Shown here one piece after another: positions 175 to 23,204 of a stretch of 23,204 bases of DNA. Numbering within the stretch: position 1 is the first letter of the stretch; each line of letters starts with the position of its first letter. The stretch is from positions 1-23,204 of the forward strand of contig BTVI01000044.1 of assembly GCA_045862955.1 (NCBI GenBank). The letters are read 5' to 3'. Position numbers and translations under genes: made by a program. The DNA is from Fimbriimonadales bacterium (GTDB lineage Bacteria; Armatimonadota; Fimbriimonadia; Fimbriimonadales; JABRVX01). Under the pieces are notes generated by a model. The model did no database searches. It worked only from the letters and a program-made list of their open reading frames with translations, and had not been told where the DNA came from.

Positions 175-218
175 GAAGAGAGCGATCGCTAGCCGAGCAG
201 AAACGAGGGGCCAACGCC

Positions 219-1331
219 GTGAAACGAATATTCGCTGTGCTGCTTCCGGCCTTTGCCGTCGGTGTCCAGGCCCAAGTCGTAGGGACCTTCGACAACACCA
301 GGCTGATGACCGAGGACATGAACTTGGCATCCGGGGACTGGCTCTCCGGCATGCGCGAGTGCTTCCAGAGCCGAGGGGCACCGATCACTACCACCGGCAC
401 CCTCACCCCCGCCTACTTATCTGGCGTCACCGTCTTTTTCACCAGCGAATTCCTTAACGATGTGCCCTCGAACGACGAAGTGGCGGCGGTCGTCGCATGG
501 GTCCAAAACGGCGGCACCCTCATCGTCACCGGAGAGTGTGGGTGACACGGTAGCACCATCGGCTACAATCGTCTGGTCAACCCCTTCAAGGTGTACTTGG
601 GACCGACGACGTTGCCGGGAACGGGTCAGGTCTTGACCCGACATCTAATAACCGCAGGGCTGACGACAGTGCAAGTGGGCCAGAACGCTCAGCTGGCCGT
701 CCAGGGCCCTCACTTGGCGCTGATCAACGATCCGAACGCAAAGTTACTCGCGGTTCTGGTAGAGAACACGCCGGAGACCGGGCTCGGCAGGGTACTCGTG
801 ATCGGCGACATCACGATGTTCACGGACGATTACCTCAACCCGTACCCGGAGAACCGGCGGCTGGCGGAGAACATCGCCGCTTGGTCGCTCGGCTTGTCGC
901 GCGAACTCAGCGGAAACGTGCAGCTGGGGCAATACGGTCCTCCGCCGACCGGCATTCCCGTCTCTCTCAGCGTGTATGCTGGCTCATCGCGCGTGGACGA
1001 GGAAGTGACACAGCTGGATGCGCTCGGCAACTACTGGGTGGCTGTCGAGGCGCAAGGTATCGTGGATGTAGTTGTCAAGCCATCGCACTGGCTCAGCGTG
1101 CGGGAGCCAGGTATCGATCTCGGGGTGTCCGGTGCGACCGTGGACTTCGTGGTACCAATCAACGGCGATGCAGATGGCGACGACCTCGTAGGCTTAGCGG
1201 ACCTGGCGCGCATTCTCGTGACGTTCGCAACCAGCCTGGACCCGAATGCCGATCTCGACGGCAGCGGACTGGCCGATCTGCAAGACCTGAACATCGTGCT
1301 TACCAACTTCGCGAAGACGGGCGACGGCTAG
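219..1331 (+). CDS. Secreted protein (signal peptide, DUF4350/GATase-like domain, C-terminal SHWL Ig-like + dockerin-like module) with in-frame TGA at 543-545; candidate selenoprotein/readthrough, or nonsense-interrupted gene
   Basis: ORFs 219..545 and 591..1331 share one frame and are separated only by TGA 543-545. The 15 intervening codons are open (HGSTIGYNRLVNPFK). There is an N-terminal signal peptide (MKRIFAVLLPAFAVGVQA). WVQNGGTLIVTGE before the TGA and GRVLVIGDITMF...ENRRLAENIAAW after it look like two halves of one DUF4350-like fold. The C-terminus has two EF-hand-like repeats (GDADGDDLVGLADL, ADLDGSGLADLQDL). No RBS precedes GTG 591. Confidence 0.75.
540..583 (+). promoter_or_regulatory. 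Stem-loop at and after the in-frame UGA (candidate SECIS or readthrough element)
   Basis: Pairings found by eye: GTAGC(550-554)/GCTAC(562-566), ACG(547-549)/CGT(570-572), TGAC(543-546)/GTCA(576-579), GGG(540-542)/CCC(581-583). An alternative fold, ACCA(555-558)/TGGT(574-577) plus CG/CG, gives a loop starting with G562, 16 nt after the UGA. Confidence 0.35.
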
Positions 1332-3850: not shown

Positions 3851-3926
3851 TGGTAGCCCGGACGGGACTCGAACCCGCGACCTTCGCCTTGAAAGGGCGA
3901 CGTCCTAACCACTAGACGACCGGGCC
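3851..3926 (-). tRNA. tRNA-Glu (anticodon TTC)
   Basis: Reverse complement GGCCCGGTCGTCTAGTGGTTAGGACGTCGCCCTTTCAAGGCGAAGGTCGCGGGTTCGAGTCCCGTCCGGGCTACCA: 76 nt, acceptor stem GGCCCGG/CCGGGCT, anticodon arm TCGCC-CTTTCAA-GGCGA, T-loop GGTTCGAGTCC, encoded CCA. Confidence 0.97.
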
Positions 3927-9546: not shown

Positions 9547-10782
9547 ATGTCCGATAAGCTGGCCGTTTTGGGTGGAACTCCGGTTCGAACGGGTCCGTTG
9601 GGCAGATGGCCCATCTGCGACGAGCGCGACGAACAGGCAGTGCTGCGTGTACTGCGTTCGGGGCGCTGGGGCCGGTCCGGCGACGGAGAGTTGGAGCGTT
9701 TCGAGGCGCGCTTCGCGGGTTATTGCGGAGCTCGCTACGGCGTCACGGTAACCAACGGCACCGTTGCCCTGCGCATCGCACTGTGGGCAGCGGGGGTCGG
9801 GCCGGGAGACGAGGTGATCGTGCCACCATACACGTTCCTCGCCACCGCAACCGCAGTGGTGGAGTGCAACGCCACACCGATTTTCGTGGACATCGAGCCG
9901 CAGACCTATAATCTGGACCCCGAGCGGTTCGAAAAGGCGATCACGCCACGGACCAAAGCGGTCATTCCCGTTCACCTCGCGGGCCTGCCCGCGGATATGG
10001 ACACCATCTGCGAGATCGCGCGGCGCCACGGGATCACCGTGATCGAAGACGCAGCGCATGCCCACGGGTCGGCCTACAAGGGACGGCGATGCGGGTCCTT
10101 GGGTGACATGGCCTGCTTCTCGTTTCAGTCGTCCAAGAACTTGAATAGCGGAGAGGGCGGCATCATACTAACATCCGATGAGCGGCTGTTCGAGCTGTGC
10201 CGTTCGATCCACAACTGCGGGCGCCTTCCCGGGGGTAGGTGGTACGACCATAACATCATGAGTGGCAACTACCGCCTGTCGGAGATGCAAGCGGCGCTCT
10301 TGCACGCGCAGATGGACCGGCTGGACGAGCTGGCTGCCCGGCGAGAACAGGTGGCGCGTAGATTTACAGCCCTGTTAGGTGATGTGCCCGGTATCGAGCC
10401 CCTGCCGTACGGACCTCATACCACCGCGCACGCCTATCACCTATACGTGATACGCTATGACGAAACCGTGTACGGTGTGCCCCGCGCTACGTACTGCAAA
10501 GCGATCCAGGCGGAAGGGGTTCCGCTCAGCGAGGGCTATGTGTTGCCTTTGTATCGCCAGCCTCTGTTTGCTAACCGCGCCTTCGGACCGTTCCTGGTCT
10601 CGGAACAGATGGACTACAACGCCGTCTCTTGCCCCGTGTGCGAGCGAGCGTGCGGCACGGAGGGCACTTGGCTCTGGCAAGGGCACCTGCTGGCCTCCGA
10701 CGAGGACGTCGAGCGGGTGGGCGAGGCGTTCCATAAGCTATACCGGCTTCGCGACCAATTACGAGAGGTGCCCAATTGCTAG
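9547..10782 (+). CDS. DegT/DnrJ/EryC1/StrS family PLP-dependent aminotransferase
   Basis: GAGGTG RBS; NGTVAL, GDEVIVPPYTF.AT, IEDAAHAHG, FSFQSSKNL.SGEGG (PLP lysine), NYRLSEMQAA. Confidence 0.95.
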   Translation: MSDKLAVLGGTPVRTGPLGRWPICDERDEQAVLRVLRSGRWGRSGDGELERFEARFAGYCGARYGVTVTNGTVALRIALWAAGVGPGDEVIVPPYTFLATATAVVECNATPIFVDIEPQTYNLDPERFEKAITPRTKAVIPVHLAGLPADMDTICEIARRHGITVIEDAAHAHGSAYKGRRCGSLGDMACFSFQSSKNLNSGEGGIILTSDERLFELCRSIHNCGRLPGGRWYDHNIMSGNYRLSEMQAALLHAQMDRLDELAARREQVARRFTALLGDVPGIEPLPYGPHTTAHAYHLYVIRYDETVYGVPRATYCKAIQAEGVPLSEGYVLPLYRQPLFANRAFGPFLVSEQMDYNAVSCPVCERACGTEGTWLWQGHLLASDEDVERVGEAFHKLYRLRDQLREVPNC

Positions 10783-12005
10783 TCGGTGCCGCGGAGACTG
10801 ACATAACACCGGATTGGCCTGTCGAACTCGGTGGCTTCGCGGCACGCGAACAGCCCAGTGTGGGGGTGCACGATCCCATCCACGCTAGGGCTCTGTATGT
10901 TGTCGGCGCCGACGGTGACAAGCTCCTGTGGTTGCATGCCGAATGTGTAGGATTCGATGCTAACTACGTAGCTCGGATTCGAGCTATGTTGTCCTCCGCG
11001 CTTGCGCTCCCACCCGAAGCAATCTGTCTCTCTGCTACTCACACGCATTCTGCCCCGGCCACTATCACGCTCACACTCACAGGCCATCAGGACCCTTCTT
11101 ACATGCAGTGGCTGGAAGAGAAGCTGTGCGAAGTCGCCGAGGGGGCCACGCGGTCGGTCGAGGAGTGCCGGGTGCTGTGTGGTAGGAGGGATCTTAGTCT
11201 CGGCGTGGAGAGGCGGCGTGATGCGACTGCTCCGGTGGATGAGACCGTGACCGTCACGGCCTTCGAGCGAGCTAGCGGGGACCTGAAAGCGGTGGTAGCT
11301 AACTACGCCGTGCACAACGTGGCGATGGGACACGAGAACCGCCTGATAAGCAGTGACATCCACGGTTACGCTGCGAGCTGGCTGCACGAGAACCTGCCAG
11401 GTAGGCCGATCTGTCTGTTGCTGCCTGGTGCGTGTGCGAACATCAATCCCCCCAGCGAAGGAACCGACTACGATCGTGTGGCCGGGTGGGGCAAGGATTT
11501 GGGTGGTACGGTGGCGGCAGCCATCCACGGCGCGAACGAGGATAACTCGTCCGTAGGGATCGAGCTGTTAGCGATTGAAATCCCACTAGAAAAGCTGGAT
11601 GGTGTTGCGCTCGCCGCACGAGCAGACTCCCTTCGCGCCGCGATGGGCGATGGAAGCACATACGCATCTGCACGCTGTCGAGAGGCTGTGAGCATCTGGG
11701 AACAGCACATGTTGTCGCGTCCACAGCGCGAGTCCGTCACCATGGACGTGCAGCTCATTACGCTCGGCAGCACCTGCTATGCTTGTGTCGGCGCGGAGGT
11801 GTTCTCGCATATGACGCGGGCCGTCCCGACTGTGTGCCCCGTGGGTTGCGCGAACGGCATCATCGGCTATATCGCCCCCCGTCACATCTATGACGTGGGT
11901 GGATACGAGGTGGACTCCGCATACGTCTTCTATGATACGCAACGCATCCTCCCTGGTGGATTCGAGAAGGTGGTTGCACTCCTAAGGGAGCGAGCGGGAT
12001 GCTGA
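10776..12005 (+). CDS. Neutral/alkaline ceramidase-like (N-terminal domain) hydrolase
   Basis: GAAETDITP...LGGF..R...GVHDPIHARAL, SATHTHSAP, NYAVH, GACANINP, NG.IGY....YD.GGYE; TTG start overlaps the upstream gene. Confidence 0.8.
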   Translation: MLVGAAETDITPDWPVELGGFAAREQPSVGVHDPIHARALYVVGADGDKLLWLHAECVGFDANYVARIRAMLSSALALPPEAICLSATHTHSAPATITLTLTGHQDPSYMQWLEEKLCEVAEGATRSVEECRVLCGRRDLSLGVERRRDATAPVDETVTVTAFERASGDLKAVVANYAVHNVAMGHENRLISSDIHGYAASWLHENLPGRPICLLLPGACANINPPSEGTDYDRVAGWGKDLGGTVAAAIHGANEDNSSVGIELLAIEIPLEKLDGVALAARADSLRAAMGDGSTYASARCREAVSIWEQHMLSRPQRESVTMDVQLITLGSTCYACVGAEVFSHMTRAVPTVCPVGCANGIIGYIAPRHIYDVGGYEVDSAYVFYDTQRILPGGFEKVVALLRERAGC

Positions 12006-13663: not shown

Positions 13664-13788
13664 CCCCCTCGAGCGGCGCTCCACCCCAACGATTCTCCTT
13701 CGTCTCTTCGCACAATGAGCGCGAATCGGCCGAAAGAGATGTACAATAGTTACGCGGTAGGACGGATATCCGCCGTATGGAGGTGACT

Positions 13789-14502
13789 ATGCAGGACCTT
13801 CGTAGAGCGTTGGGCTTCACGCTGATCGAGCTATTGGTAGTCATCGCGATCATCGCCATCCTCGCGGCGATCCTTTTCCCCGTGTTCGCCTCTGCGCGTG
13901 CCAAGGCTCGGCAGACGCAATGTAGCAGCAACATCAAGCAGCTCAACATTGGCATGATGCTATACATTAGTGATCATGACGATCGCATGATCACGTATCA
14001 CTTCTTTAACTACGCGAGCGGCTATACGGACGACCTACGCAAGGGTTCCGCCAACAAGTACATCCGCTCTCCAGAGGTCTTCCGCTGCCCTGCCGACAAC
14101 ATGGAGCGATGGGACTGGGCCAACTGGGGTCCCGACATGCCGAAGATCAAGGGCACCTACTCTTACACCATCAACTCCTACCTAACCAAGAGCACGCCTT
14201 ACGGCTGGAGTGATACATACCAAGGCAAAGTCAAGCTCAGCTACTTCCAGGAGCCGGCTCGAACACCCAGCTTCGTAGAGGAAAAAGGTATCAACGAGTG
14301 GTCTGCGTACGATCCGGGGCATCTCTACTGGGGCATCAACGACTCGCGCTTCGGCAACGTGGACGAGACGAGCGGGCGCCACAACGGGAAGTGCAACGTG
14401 GCTCACCTCGACGGGCACGTAAAGACCGTAAAGGGCGATCTGATCTGGCTGTACGCGCGCAACGACGATGGCACGTTCTGGTGCTGCCCACCAGTGAAGT
14501 GA
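13789..14502 (+). CDS. Prepilin-type N-terminal cleavage/methylation protein with H-X9-DG motif (paralogue of 3048..3725)
   Basis: ATG 13789 follows [49 protein letters not shown]. Confidence 0.92.
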
Positions 14503-19308: not shown

Positions 19309-21651
19309 TTATCCGATCGCGACGCGCACCAAGCCGTGATTGGGGACTTCGAACGAGATCTCGTTGGTGCCTTCCCTAAGCGGGTGGGCGAAAAGCGAGT
19401 GCCCGTCTGCATCCTCTATCCCTATCACCGTATCGCGCTCGCACCGCACCAGCAACTCACACCGCAGACGCTCGTCCTTCAGCACCGTGTACCGCACATC
19501 GAACACCATGCCCCTATACTTCAGGTTTGTGATAGTATACGTGCCACCATCCCGCATCATTCGCTTCGGCAAACTGGGAGCCAGCGCGAACTCTTGCGCG
19601 CCAACTTCTCGGAATCCTACGATGTTGCGTATCAGCAGGGTAGGCATGGTAGCCCCCCATCCATAGCACTCTGCCCCGTTGCGAATCTGGGGATGCATAT
19701 CCACCGGCCAGAATTCGGCTGCCTGCCCCGGGATACGGTAGTTGTACGGCTCCGGCAGACTGAACTTGGTATCACCCATCGGTGTCGGCTCCCGGCCCGC
19801 TGTGCGAGAATACACCCTATCGGCTGTGGCTGTCAGTGTTTCTGCCAAGAACGGGCGCAGGCCTGCGTTCCATGCCGCCTCGCTGAACGGGAACCAGAAT
19901 GAGGGCCACTCTAGGAATGGAGTGGGTTCATCCGCGAATCGCCGGAACATGGGGCGCACCCCTTCCACCTGCTCCGGAGTGGCGATGCCCACAGAGAGCG
20001 GCACGAACATCATGACATCGTAGTAGTCCTCCAGAATGATGGGCTCTCCGGTCCTCGCATCGAAGTCGCGAAACCAACCATCCACGTACATCGCACGCGT
20101 CGTCTCGATGCGCTTCTGTGCTAGCTCGCGCCACCTCTTCGCGTCTGCCTTGTGACCCGCTACGGCTGCCAACTCCTCCATTACGGCGAATGCGTGAGCC
20201 ATCACCGCTTCGACGTCTACGGTACGCACGTAGTCGGATACTTTCGCCTCCTCACCCACGTCGATCAGGAAGCGGCGCGAGCCGTCTTGACCGGACTCCC
20301 AACTGTTGTTGCAGTGGAACCAACCTTCGTCGTCGGTACGGTTCTCCAGCCACCAATCGAGGAAGGCTCGCAGGTAGGGGTATAGGTCACGTATCCACGC
20401 GTCGTCTCCGGTGCGGTGGTGTAGGCAGCGTATTACGTGAAACGGCAGGCCCCACGTAGGTGCCGTACCACATTCGGCCCCGCCTGCGCCTATCATGTTC
20501 ATGCTGCCGTCCTCACGGGAACATGGCACGTTGGGCATCGGTGCGTCGGCAAAGGTGCCGTAGATGACTTCCTTGGCCAACTCCTCGTCGGCATAGGACA
20601 GACACATCATATCCAGCATGGTCTCTCCGAGCACCGCACGGGGCGTGTAGATCTGCATGGCATCCCACGGATGCTGATAGATGCCAATGGGTGGGCGCGT
20701 GTTCATCCGCAAGGTCTCTAGGTCCAGCACCCATCCCTGCTTCCATTCATCCGGCCAGTCGCCGGATAGCACCGGTGCCGAGCGGTAGAACTCGCGGTCC
20801 TCCTGTAACTGCCTGTCTAAGATGACCGTCGCGTTGCCTAGCACCTCTCGATGGCGGCGCAACGTCCACAGCTCGTTGGTGCCACGTGTTAGGGCGAAGG
20901 TTAGCTGCTCCTCACCGCCTGCCGGCACGGTAAGCCGGTAAGTCAGGATGCTGAACATCGGCAGCGGCAGGGACTCGGATGCACCCTGGTTCGACGTTCG
21001 ATCATTGGAGCGGACCCACTCGTCCCACTGTTCGCGGTGTGGTGTGGCCTTATACGCAACCGGCTCTCGATCCGCTCCCAACGCGAACACGTCCCCGTAG
21101 GCCCACATCTTGCACACCGCCGCAGCGTGCTCGCCATCGAAGGTTGCAGCAAGGCCGTTGGAGCCCCACCAAGGGCGCTCCACGTGACCGTACTCGTTGG
21201 TCACATGTACGAAGACCTCGCGCACTCGGTCCGACGCGTTGCGGACGCTGAGCAAACAGGCCAGCGCGTGCTCCTCCGCCAGGAAGTACTTGGCAGAGAA
21301 GCTGAGGCCATCGGTCTCCCAGTCGTAGCTCATCATCGTCTTGGTGTGATAGCGCGAACCGAGGCGAATCCCTGCACGCGAGAAGTCGTCGGGGGATAGC
21401 AGCGTGCGACCATTTGCTGCCACGCCGAGGTGGAGGAAGGACAGGTAGTTGACGTGGCGCAGGGCGCCCTCTCCGTAGGGCCAGGGGAAGCGACGGCACC
21501 AGAAGCCGAAGCCGAGCGGGGGGACGGAACGGATGATGCCACTGCGGTTCATCACTGCGCTGTGATATGGATTGTCCAAGTAGCCGAACGGCGGGTAGTC
21601 GAGAGCGGGGTACTCGGGAGGCAGCACGATTTCCTGGTTGCGACGTGTCAA
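19309..21651 (-). CDS. GH63/MGH1-like (alpha/alpha)6-barrel glycoside hydrolase
   Basis: About 780 aa; LYPYLRAFLDWW..NR, WESGQDGS motif, AAEFW...ECYGW near the C-terminus. TTG 21651 sits 8 nt after an AAGGAG RBS; GTG 21660 is the alternative start. Confidence 0.7.
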   Translation of the reverse strand: MTRRNQEIVLPPEYPALDYPPFGYLDNPYHSAVMNRSGIIRSVPPLGFGFWCRRFPWPYGEGALRHVNYLSFLHLGVAANGRTLLSPDDFSRAGIRLGSRYHTKTMMSYDWETDGLSFSAKYFLAEEHALACLLSVRNASDRVREVFVHVTNEYGHVERPWWGSNGLAATFDGEHAAAVCKMWAYGDVFALGADREPVAYKATPHREQWDEWVRSNDRTSNQGASESLPLPMFSILTYRLTVPAGGEEQLTFALTRGTNELWTLRRHREVLGNATVILDRQLQEDREFYRSAPVLSGDWPDEWKQGWVLDLETLRMNTRPPIGIYQHPWDAMQIYTPRAVLGETMLDMMCLSYADEELAKEVIYGTFADAPMPNVPCSREDGSMNMIGAGGAECGTAPTWGLPFHVIRCLHHRTGDDAWIRDLYPYLRAFLDWWLENRTDDEGWFHCNNSWESGQDGSRRFLIDVGEEAKVSDYVRTVDVEAVMAHAFAVMEELAAVAGHKADAKRWRELAQKRIETTRAMYVDGWFRDFDARTGEPIILEDYYDVMMFVPLSVGIATPEQVEGVRPMFRRFADEPTPFLEWPSFWFPFSEAAWNAGLRPFLAETLTATADRVYSRTAGREPTPMGDTKFSLPEPYNYRIPGQAAEFWPVDMHPQIRNGAECYGWGATMPTLLIRNIVGFREVGAQEFALAPSLPKRMMRDGGTYTITNLKYRGMVFDVRYTVLKDERLRCELLVRCERDTVIGIEDADGHSLFAHPLREGTNEISFEVPNHGLVRVAIG

Positions 21652-21763
21652 CTGGTTCACTCCTTCAGTTCGGGTTCAGGCGTTCTTTCGCCGTGGAGCC
21701 GGCGGTGCCCTGCGTTGGGCCGAGGCACCGAGGGACCAGGCTACTGGCGGCGAACTCGCTATC

Positions 21764-22138
21764 ATGCAGGAGTTCGACCAGTTCGTGACCTTCCTCTACA
21801 CCAAGGACCTCCAAGCCTCGTCCCGCTTCCTTTCGGAGACTCTGGGCCTGCGGCTGGTGCTGGATCAGGGCCGTTGCCGCATCTTCCGCGTTGCGCCGCG
21901 GTCCTATCTCGGCGTGTGTGAACGCAGTGACCCACCGCAGTCGGCCGGTGTCATCGTGACGCTAGTTACTGACGACGTGGACGGCTGGCATGAGCGGCTG
22001 CGCGATGCGGGTATTCCGATCGAGAAGGAACCTGCTCGGAATCCAGACTTCGACATCTACCACATTTTCTTTCGCGATCCGAACGGTTACCTCTTCGAGA
22101 TTCAGCGATTCCTCGATCCCTCGTGGCCACAGGACTGA
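21764..22138 (+). CDS. VOC/glyoxalase family protein
   Basis: TFLYTKDLQASSRFLSETLGL, VTLVTDDVDGWHERL, FFRDPNGYLFEIQ; likely start ATG 21764. Confidence 0.9.
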   Translation: MQEFDQFVTFLYTKDLQASSRFLSETLGLRLVLDQGRCRIFRVAPRSYLGVCERSDPPQSAGVIVTLVTDDVDGWHERLRDAGIPIEKEPARNPDFDIYHIFFRDPNGYLFEIQRFLDPSWPQD

Positions 22139-22284: not shown

Positions 22285-23204
22285 TTAAGGCTGGCCCTGC
22301 TTGCCGAAGTTCAGCAACACGATGTTGAGGTCCGCCAGGTCGGTTAAGCCCGAGCCATCGAGATCGGTCAGCACGTTGGCCTGACCGAACTTCACTAGCA
22401 CGGCGTTCAGGTCCGCCAAGCCGACCGAGTTGTCGTTGTCGGCGTCACCGTTCACCTGAACGAAGGCGACCGTGTTTGCGCCAGACACGATCGTCTTCGA
22501 AGCCTCCACTGCTCGCAGCCAGTGCGAGAACTTGATCGCTACGTCCCAAGTGCCCTCTGCAACGCAAGGCACGCTAGCGGTTCCGGACGCATCCAGCGTG
22601 ATAGGATAGGTGTACTGCGGAGTAGTCTCGCCGGGATTGCGCAGTTCCAGTATCGCAGTCTGACCGAATGGGCTTCCGAAGTTCTGAAGCGTGACCGACA
22701 CATTGAGCGTGGCCGGCGGGCGAAGTTGGAATACATGGATGCGGTTGGTGTCTTCGCTACCAACGTAGATGATACGGTTGTCGGGATCGTAGGCAACCGA
22801 CTCGATCTCACCCCACCCGAGCGGAGAGAACTCCGTCTCGCCGAGCACGTTACCGTCGAAGTCGTAGATCCAAAGCTTGTTGACGGTGCCGGGCGCCCCG
22901 ACGGTGCTGGACATCAGCAGGTACTCACCCGTGAGGTCCGTTCGGCAGAGCATCCAGTTGGCAGCCTGCGCGGGGATCACACATAGTCCCTTGGTCTCGA
23001 GGTCCTGCGTCACCCAGCTCTTCACGATTCCCGTGAGACCCGAGGAGTCGTGCGTGTGAAAGTCCAGCCAGATACCGTCTAGGTCGCGATCCTCCAACGT
23101 AACGAACTGATCGAGGCTCGGGACATAGGCAATGTCGTCCGGGTTCGGCACTGGGCCGATGTTGCACACATAGGCTGGCGAAGTGTTGGTGTCCACCGTG
23201 GCGA
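22285..23204 (-). CDS. Partial (5' end outside window) probable extracellular protein: beta-propeller-like region plus SHWL Ig-like + dockerin-like C-terminus
   Basis: The frame stays open to the window edge. DIAYVP and ESVAYDPDNRIIYVG blade-like motifs; IKFSHWL, NGDADNDNSVGLADL and TDLDGSGLTDLADLNIVLLNFG match the C-terminus of the gene at 219. Confidence 0.85.
   Translation of the reverse strand, partial: ATVDTNTSPAYVCNIGPVPNPDDIAYVPSLDQFVTLEDRDLDGIWLDFHTHDSSGLTGIVKSWVTQDLETKGLCVIPAQAANWMLCRTDLTGEYLLMSSTVGAPGTVNKLWIYDFDGNVLGETEFSPLGWGEIESVAYDPDNRIIYVGSEDTNRIHVFQLRPPATLNVSVTLQNFGSPFGQTAILELRNPGETTPQYTYPITLDASGTASVPCVAEGTWDVAIKFSHWLRAVEASKTIVSGANTVAFVQVNGDADNDNSVGLADLNAVLVKFGQANVLTDLDGSGLTDLADLNIVLLNFGKQGQP

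Follow-up and report, generated by a model that had tools for sequence, protein, structure and literature searches.

The window, a stretch of 23,204 nucleotides, is contig C44 of a Fimbriimonadales genome (G000; 3.36 Mb, 97.55% complete). Near the start of its forward strand, a 108-aa ORF (219-545) and a 246-aa ORF (591-1331) lie in one shared frame. Translation of the whole region 219..1331 gives 370 codons ending in TAG, with a TGA at 543-545 as the sole internal stop (context ...GGTLIVTGECG*HGSTIGYNRLVNPFKV...). If the TGA is read through, the product is a protein of 370 residues, to which Cys paralogs with an uninterrupted full-length frame can be aligned over the entire length. A Shine-Dalgarno-like sequence, GAGGGG (205..210), lies 8 nt ahead of the start codon GTG219 and may serve as the ribosome-binding site; no such site was seen in the sequence upstream of GTG591. 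These observations agree with the original prediction that the in-frame TGA joins the two ORFs and that the second has neither a ribosome-binding site nor a leader of its own. Gene callers split the gene at the TGA codon (database entries P0136, P0139, P0128).

The TGA at 543-545 is real DNA and is the sole break in the 370-codon frame. A check of the sequencing data, proposed together with the prediction, bears this out: the codon is covered by contigs from all four DNA runs (four studies), and no other letter occurs there. The check was made on contigs rather than raw reads, and one run, X2, is near-identical to the window and may be its source. At least half of the words of the gene occur in 14 of the 24 runs listed, all of them bioreactor, sludge or aquatic metagenomes. 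Among the RNA runs, one contig of X17 spans 378-602 at depth 2.5; of the other three, two cover the 5' part alone, and X15 is probably DNA.

The gene is preceded by PEP-CTERM-type genes and is tail to tail with an aldehyde dehydrogenase gene. Positions 1-45 of the window are the tail of a PEP-CTERM-type gene, and in the genome G001 four such genes stand in tandem upstream of the orthologue (L083:975-4318). No conserved operon was seen around the genes of the family. Repetitive stretches, read as long low-complexity ORFs, occur near two paralogs in G000 (C12, approximately 51300-53300; C28, approximately 41100-42600). A tRNA-Glu(TTC) gene is found at 3851-3926 of the window on the complementary strand.

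Domain architecture and the predicted C-x-U loop

Residues 1-18 (219..272) form a predicted signal peptide with a basic start, a hydrophobic core and a V-Q-A end; this assignment, already part of the original prediction, agrees with the hydropathy profile, and the paralogs have similar leaders. The leader is followed by a GIFT/DUF4350-like domain with the class I glutamine amidotransferase-like fold (273..896), which is unbroken across the TGA. Indeed, the Pfam DUF4350 match crosses the codon (residues 50-219, E 7.2e-7; score 30.1 bits, cut-off 30.4), and most relatives carry PF14258. An AlphaFold2 model of residues 18-229, with U modelled as C, has a mean pLDDT of 94.3. Its best fold match is the N-terminal domain of IFT52 (Z 23.4, rmsd 2.3, 201 residues aligned; Foldseek E 1.5e-11), followed by OST48 (Z 19.4) and other class I glutamine amidotransferase-like domains. 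No thioredoxin fold occurs among the 50 structural matches listed. There is also a sequence match to IFT52N (E 3.6e-8), and the IFT52 columns at the motif read GEGGE. The one continuous DUF4350/GATase-like domain that had been predicted is thus recovered by the GIFT fold, the Pfam match falling slightly short of its threshold.

Cys107, Gly108 and the TGA codon 109 (537..545) make up a C-x-U motif, placed where a core strand loops over to the helix that follows; in the model, the motif comes after the strand at model residues 83-87 and before the helix at 96-106. We take this loop to be the nucleophile-elbow loop of amidotransferases, with the motif a few residues past the elbow. A sister family of secreted DUF4350 proteins with PEP-CTERM and other tails, found in Planctomycetota and other groups, has (A/G)DIF at the motif and a loop approximately three residues shorter. 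In a search that took in at most approximately 8000 candidates and leaned towards this family, none of its 134 aligned domains has Cys at either column, and 122 of the 134 have a gap at the Sec column.

In the order, 6 of 228 genomes match, and the full-strength C-x-U/C-x-C forms occur in family f1 only. In a sample of 401 genomes of the phylum, which contains no other f1 genome, five match, the other four weakly and without stops. A search of genome contigs with the single window protein yielded no relative. The occurrence in f1 only, together with the lack of the motif in the sister family, marks the C-x-U/C-x-C loop as a lineage-specific addition. A few distant members (P0168, P0237, P0250) carry just one Cys in this loop. 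Giant proteins of approximately 3500 residues (P0145, P0146, P0148, P0150) contain up to eight GIFT-like domain repeats.

The C-terminal part consists of an X-module-like beta-sandwich (903..1160; model pLDDT 93.2, fold matches) and a dockerin-like tail with a double calcium loop (1161..1328; sequence and fold matches). For the last 142 residues the fold matches are XDoc structures (Z 13.0, rmsd 2.9, 134 residues aligned, 16-21% identity), which also fill the best 10 Foldseek rows. The fold matches therefore refine the predicted dockerin-like tail to an X-module plus dockerin. The X-dockerin-like tail is terminal in all 75 matching ORFs of G000, which encode diverse proteins; a Dockerin_1 match was obtained in only 2 of 17 members. 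The cohesin domain PF00963 was found in none of three genomes (94-98% complete), a search that could miss remote cohesins. X-dockerin-like tails without a recognisable cohesin may possibly represent a lineage-specific surface-display system. A second X-dockerin-like ORF of the window lies at 22285-23196 on the complementary strand.

Codons at the motif column and selection on the frame

G000 contains five full-length paralogs, with TGA at the Sec column in three (ECG*H, DCG*P, DCG*G) and Cys in two (ECGC, ECNC). The genomes G000, G001 and G002 together have 15 genes, collected by protein search and thus unbiased as to codon. Their codons at this column are TGA in seven cases, TGC in six and Gly in two, and TGG, TAA and TAG are absent. 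Both Gly genes, which are G002 paralogs, also lack the first Cys of the motif. The pattern by which the original prediction would recognise selenocysteine, Cys at residue 109 in some homologues and TGA in others, is the one observed, and the recurrence of TGA at the same column in two more G000 paralogs and in other genomes rules out chance. A nonsense codon derived from Trp, suggested by the GG-aromatic look of the site, was considered and is ruled out by the absence of TGG from the 15 genes.

A DNA pattern scan was also made; it admitted TGA, TGC or TGT alone at the column and was blind to TGG by design. In genome contigs it produced six matches, three of them family members identical to G002 genes and three unrelated. 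In metagenome contigs it produced eight: five TGA members, one TGC member and two unrelated. Among all 21 loci read, 12 have TGA, seven TGC and two Gly, that is, TGA or TGC in 19 of 21; three genomes and three metagenome assemblies supplied them all, so that they do not amount to 21 independent events.

Database proteins are in keeping with this pattern. Seven of nine short ones end at ECG or DCG, which corresponds to residue 108, and at least four further fragments, 45-58% identical to family loci, stop at the same column (DCG, DCS, DCG, DCV). At least five further full-length proteins with C-x-C were found (99 of 122 new proteins parsed, 128 domain matches). Three tandem paralogs in G002 (L081:6123-10095 of G002:C2) have the loops ECG-TGA, ESAG (without Cys) and ECGC; a thioredoxin-like gene is situated approximately 3 kb from this cluster.

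The TGA loci form four clades, 37.7-53.4% identical and interspersed with Cys clades. In an analysis of 26 rows, with the motif column masked and the unpublished genome G036 left out, the best tree that groups all nine TGA rows in one clade is rejected (p-AU 0.0015). An earlier tree of 22 rows needs three changes, and its well-supported branches alone are compatible with one origin; G036 supplied a row in alignment A1 as well as the outgroup used here, and none of the main claims depends on it. Sec may have arisen several times, or it may be old with reversion to Cys; the tree favours neither.

Selection was measured by the Nei-Gojobori method in gapless register. In all six pairs of TGA orthologues, dN/dS over codons +1 to +115 after the TGA is 0.05-0.14. 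The values upstream of the TGA are 0.04-0.08 (upstream dS 0.85-2.0), and two Cys pairs are similar to the TGA pairs. For the pair L008/L009, dN/dS over codons +116 to +255 is 0.096. The full-length frames read have no further stop or frameshift downstream of the TGA. The tail of a pseudogene would drift towards a ratio of 1, and the downstream values thus reject a pseudogene.

Selenocysteine machinery and the region downstream of the TGA

TGA is an ordinary stop codon in the window, as the original prediction had noted: it terminates recN, the prepilin gene at 13777-14502 and the ORFs at 10776-12005 and 21638-22138. In G000 it terminates 532 of 1500 long coding-like frames, which rules out genome-wide recoding. 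G000 has tRNA-Sec (81 bits), selA, selB and selD, all above cut-offs, so that the genome search proposed with the prediction found all four components; selD itself has an in-frame TGA. The tRNA-Sec gene is directly 3' of selD (G000:C2:120035-121151; L001, L006), with selA and selB on other contigs, and is the one tRNA with a TCA anticodon reported by ARAGORN. All four components are also present in G001.

In G002 (94% complete), selA, selD with a TGA and tRNA-Sec are present, and selB was found by neither of two models; this genome has one TGA member of the family. It also has four AhpC/TSA-like peroxiredoxin-like frames with TGA (L069-L072) and a thioredoxin-like one (39613-39888 of G002:C25). 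Since these frames occur there, the missing selB is more likely an assembly gap, yet it counts against the selenocysteine reading. The selA gene was found in 33 of 61 relatives, and thus the presence of the machinery alone says little about the window gene.

Four of the 67 coding-score Sec candidates of G000 are selD and the three TGA paralogs. In 19 read-throughs of G000, mostly among the 67, no Pfam domain extends across the TGA, and nine are without any match. A non-exhaustive survey of the molybdopterin, AhpC/TSA, CMD and thioredoxin families revealed no internal stop in G000. As selD is the sole other Sec candidate found in this genome, it is conceivable, though rather doubtful, that the family is the main client that keeps the Sec machinery. 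A peroxiredoxin-like/TlpA-type gene of G000 (C63:10056-10418) has C-G-P-C, and its counterpart in G001 (L068; C13:22275-22637) has TGA-G-A-C together with a canonical bSECIS, which amounts to an exchange of Sec and Cys inside a single genus. A PEP-CTERM-type gene at G000:C22:13200-15000 (L050) has two in-frame TGAs that are not beside Cys and an apparent frame change, and is probably a pseudogene.

Bacterial Sec is encoded by UGA with a 3' stem-loop read by SelB, and it often lies near a Cys. Directly after the TGA of the window gene, a block of 72 nt (546..617) has a single variable site, 599, among four orthologues, and is a candidate cis-acting recoding element. In the window clade (four sequences), synonymous variation occurs in 1 of 18 codons at +1 to +18 against 91 of 149 elsewhere (p 4.6e-6), and the invariant block reaches codon +24. 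The drop is weaker in two other TGA clades (5/15 against 95/141, p 0.011; 5/16 against 81/144, p 0.05), and no drop is seen in two Cys clades (5/15 against 52/145; 5/17 against 55/156). There are only two sequences in each Cys control, and independence of codons and of related sequences is assumed in the p-values. Run X9 has a single contig of 65 nt, 534-598, common to two alleles whose flanks differ on both sides, which fits the same constraint. No alternative-frame ORF of at least 80 aa overlaps the 72-nt block. On the other hand, synonymously invariant blocks also occur away from a TGA (C12b, codons +22 to +40; a Cys pair, -26 to -9), and thus recombination can mimic the constraint signal.

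The best predicted hairpin in this region (569..609, -13.7 kcal/mol) has the loop GUGUA 45 nt past the UGA and is a candidate outside the consensus spacing; the substitution G599A, present in three of four orthologues, breaks one pair of its upper stem. The fold of the 81 nt after the TGA is unremarkable (z -0.70). [quoted passage not shown] By this model the window gene fails; three of ten TGA genes and none of seven Cys genes of the family pass, as do three of three selD genes and four of five peroxiredoxin-like TGA genes (G001/G002). In three of the passing peroxiredoxin-like genes the loop is G-led and lies 17 nt past the TGA. The results for selD and the peroxiredoxin-like genes indicate that the canonical bSECIS is used elsewhere in the lineage. 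However, 84 of 150 ordinary TGA stops pass our strict implementation and 124 of 150 the relaxed one, and a pass therefore means little as a positive test.

In the C28 clade, a short hairpin CC-AGUUY-GG occurs at 37-38 nt, like the peroxiredoxin-like loops. RNAalifold over nine TGA genes found no shared structure. Neither a proximal hairpin (GUAGC/GCUAC, with no early G in its loop) nor a loop at 37-45 nt, both weighed as candidates, could be established. Canonical SECIS elements are present in 87.4% of BSepDB entries and absent from 12.6% (PMC13326102), so that their lack in the window gene lowers the Sec claim and does not remove it. The original prediction of a selenoprotein is thus supported as regards the machinery, the TGA/Cys column and selection, whereas no canonical bSECIS could be assigned to the gene.

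Proposed function, alternatives and known systems

The paralogs, relatives, dN/dS ratios, metagenome contigs and tree make it very likely that the TGA at 543..545 is decoded as Sec. SelB and Sec-tRNA would insert the residue, guided by an element within the nearly invariant 72 nt whose structure would be unlike the consensus bSECIS. With high probability, the leader exports the protein from the cytoplasm and the X-dockerin-like tail, which 74 other G000 proteins also have, attaches it to a surface partner. The C-x-U loop, lengthened by approximately three residues in this lineage, would hold Cys107 and Sec109, which may switch back and forth between a selenolthiol and a selenenylsulfide state and reduce disulfides or peroxides outside the cell, in the manner of the SELENOF CGU motif; the Cys-only paralogs may be lower-activity or selenium-independent versions. 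We know of no GIFT-fold relative that is a redox enzyme. A redox or metal function is suggested by the motif and its conservation, and by analogy a surface redox role of Cys107/Sec109 has about an even chance. For the analogue, the CGU motif of SELENOF, a potential of -256 mV and reductase activity are reported (PMC9304195). Taken as a whole, the combination of Sec decoding, predicted export with surface docking and a reversible Cys-Gly-Sec redox site in one protein of 370 residues appears likely. More speculatively, and rather doubtfully, the C-x-U loop may have made a selenoenzyme out of a non-catalytic GIFT scaffold, with a surface set of Sec and Cys paralogs displayed through a dockerin-like system and a SECIS class unlike that of selD and the peroxiredoxin-like genes.

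One possibility is that Sec is inserted and that the C-x-U motif is a site binding or sensing soft metals (Hg, Cu, As, Zn), with no catalytic redox couple. Metal binding by C-x-C and C-x-U pairs is known from other families. The middle residue of the motif varies (G, N, A, L, P, S), and His110 follows it in the window clade, both in keeping with a metal site; metal-binding selenoproteins are present in the catalogue of prokaryotic selenoproteins published in 2026 (PMC13188914). However, residue 110 is not conserved, being P, G, T or Y in the paralogs, and a scan of 23 neighbouring ORFs showed nothing recognisable as a metal-resistance gene. A thioredoxin reductase gene directly upstream of the C28-type TGA paralog, on the same strand, in G000 and G001 (L013:96-1304; L082:4343-5290) also speaks against a metal site, though this is one paralog in two kin genomes and was not counted as support. 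We regard a metal site as rather improbable.

Alternatively, the inserted Sec could be purely structural, making a stable Se-S (or S-S) staple within a binding domain that is exported, without catalysis. The best GIFT-like matches, IFT52 and OST48, are interaction domains, and the pair is absent from the wide sister family as well as from two paralogs in G002. However, a costly recoded codon in four clades and the repeated Sec/Cys switches fit a chemical role better, and Sec is usually catalytic (PMC13188914); a staple is unlikely.

Readthrough independent of Sec, in which a Cys or Trp tRNA decodes the codon as near-cognate, or a leaky stop by which the proportions of full-length and truncated protein are set, would agree with the missing canonical bSECIS and with the failure to find selB in G002, and the conserved downstream nucleotides also fit a read-through enhancer. 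Still, it is very unlikely: the alternative residue in the 15 genes is Cys and never Trp, no member has TAA or TAG, the sole tRNA with a TCA anticodon is the Sec tRNA, and a canonical SECIS is likewise missing from 12.6% of BSepDB entries (PMC13326102). Two separately translated pieces, the 108-aa one and a re-initiated downstream part assembled after translation, would match the behaviour of the gene callers and the purifying selection on both halves. However, the cut would fall inside one alpha/beta sandwich, the second piece lacks both a leader and a ribosome site, codons +1 to +15, ahead of any restart, are kept as protein (18/18), and the stop is always TGA and always at the Cys column, which makes this most improbable. 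A nonsense mutation or an assembly error, which the original prediction had named as a real alternative, is excluded by the downstream dN/dS ratios, the TGA in all four DNA runs and the tree with 12 TGA loci in four deep clades rather than one, even though TGC or TGT becomes TGA by a one-base change and intact Cys paralogs exist in the genome.

Returning to the reading as an exported selenoprotein, the family is apparently undescribed and of narrow distribution, and its conserved TGA is probably Sec-coding. Neither DUF4350 nor GIFT nor dockerin appears in Table 1 of the 2026 catalogue (PMC13188914), where NF004836 comes nearest in fold, and no selenoprotein with a DUF4350/GIFT domain is listed in the available text of this catalogue. 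No mention of DUF4350 was found in the available parts of deep-Sep (PMC12013277) and BSepDB (PMC13326102), and NCBIfam 20.0 has no model for the window family. The openly accessible full-text literature contained no DUF4350 selenoprotein and no paper on selenocysteine in Fimbriimonadales; the hits for selenoproteins together with Armatimonad, in the text available, concern other subjects. Within these sources, the claim that no selenoprotein family with this architecture has been described holds. If the reading is true, a new fold and architecture, namely a GIFT/DUF4350-like domain that contains Sec and is flanked by a signal peptide and an X-dockerin-like tail, would stand beside the approximately 119 catalogued prokaryotic selenoprotein families. 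Single genomes would contain a rare natural series of C-x-U, C-x-C and Cys-free forms with repeated switches, so that what Sec offers beyond Cys could be tested directly. As a nearly invariant sequence that lacks a consensus hairpin, the 72-nt block would be a concrete substrate for finding the non-canonical SECIS classes expected by the literature. Genes deposited as hypothetical fragments of 108 aa and orphan C-terminal halves would have their annotation corrected.

The known systems each share a part of this architecture. The C-terminal 142 residues have a fold like that of the type II X-module/dockerin of cellulosome scaffoldins, but at 16-21% identity, on 75 diverse proteins and in three genomes without a PF00963 cohesin. 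The CGU motif is shared with SELENOF/Sep15, which acts in a secretory compartment (PMC9304195), and C-x-U is shared with bacterial CxU selenoproteins (rhodanese form 3, UshA-like, ferredoxin-thioredoxin reductase, thioredoxin-like Sec.1); in all of these the fold appears to differ and there is no NCBIfam match, so that the analogy is functional only. DUF4350 (PF14258)/GIFT proteins, such as IFT52N and OST48/Wbp1, have the same fold, whereas the sister family among them, with (A/G)DIF, a shorter loop and no Cys, is unlike the window family. Nearest in fold among catalogued selenoproteins is the CTP synthase C-terminal-related family NF004836, which like the window protein has Sec in the class I glutamine amidotransferase-like superfold, and has Cys homologues; one frame of 561-572 codons in each of G000-G002 matches it below the cut-off and without stops. 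However, its motif is GxUxG, whereas the window protein has E-C-G-U-H-G, does not match NF004836, and differs from that family in its C-x-U pair, leader and X-dockerin-like tail.
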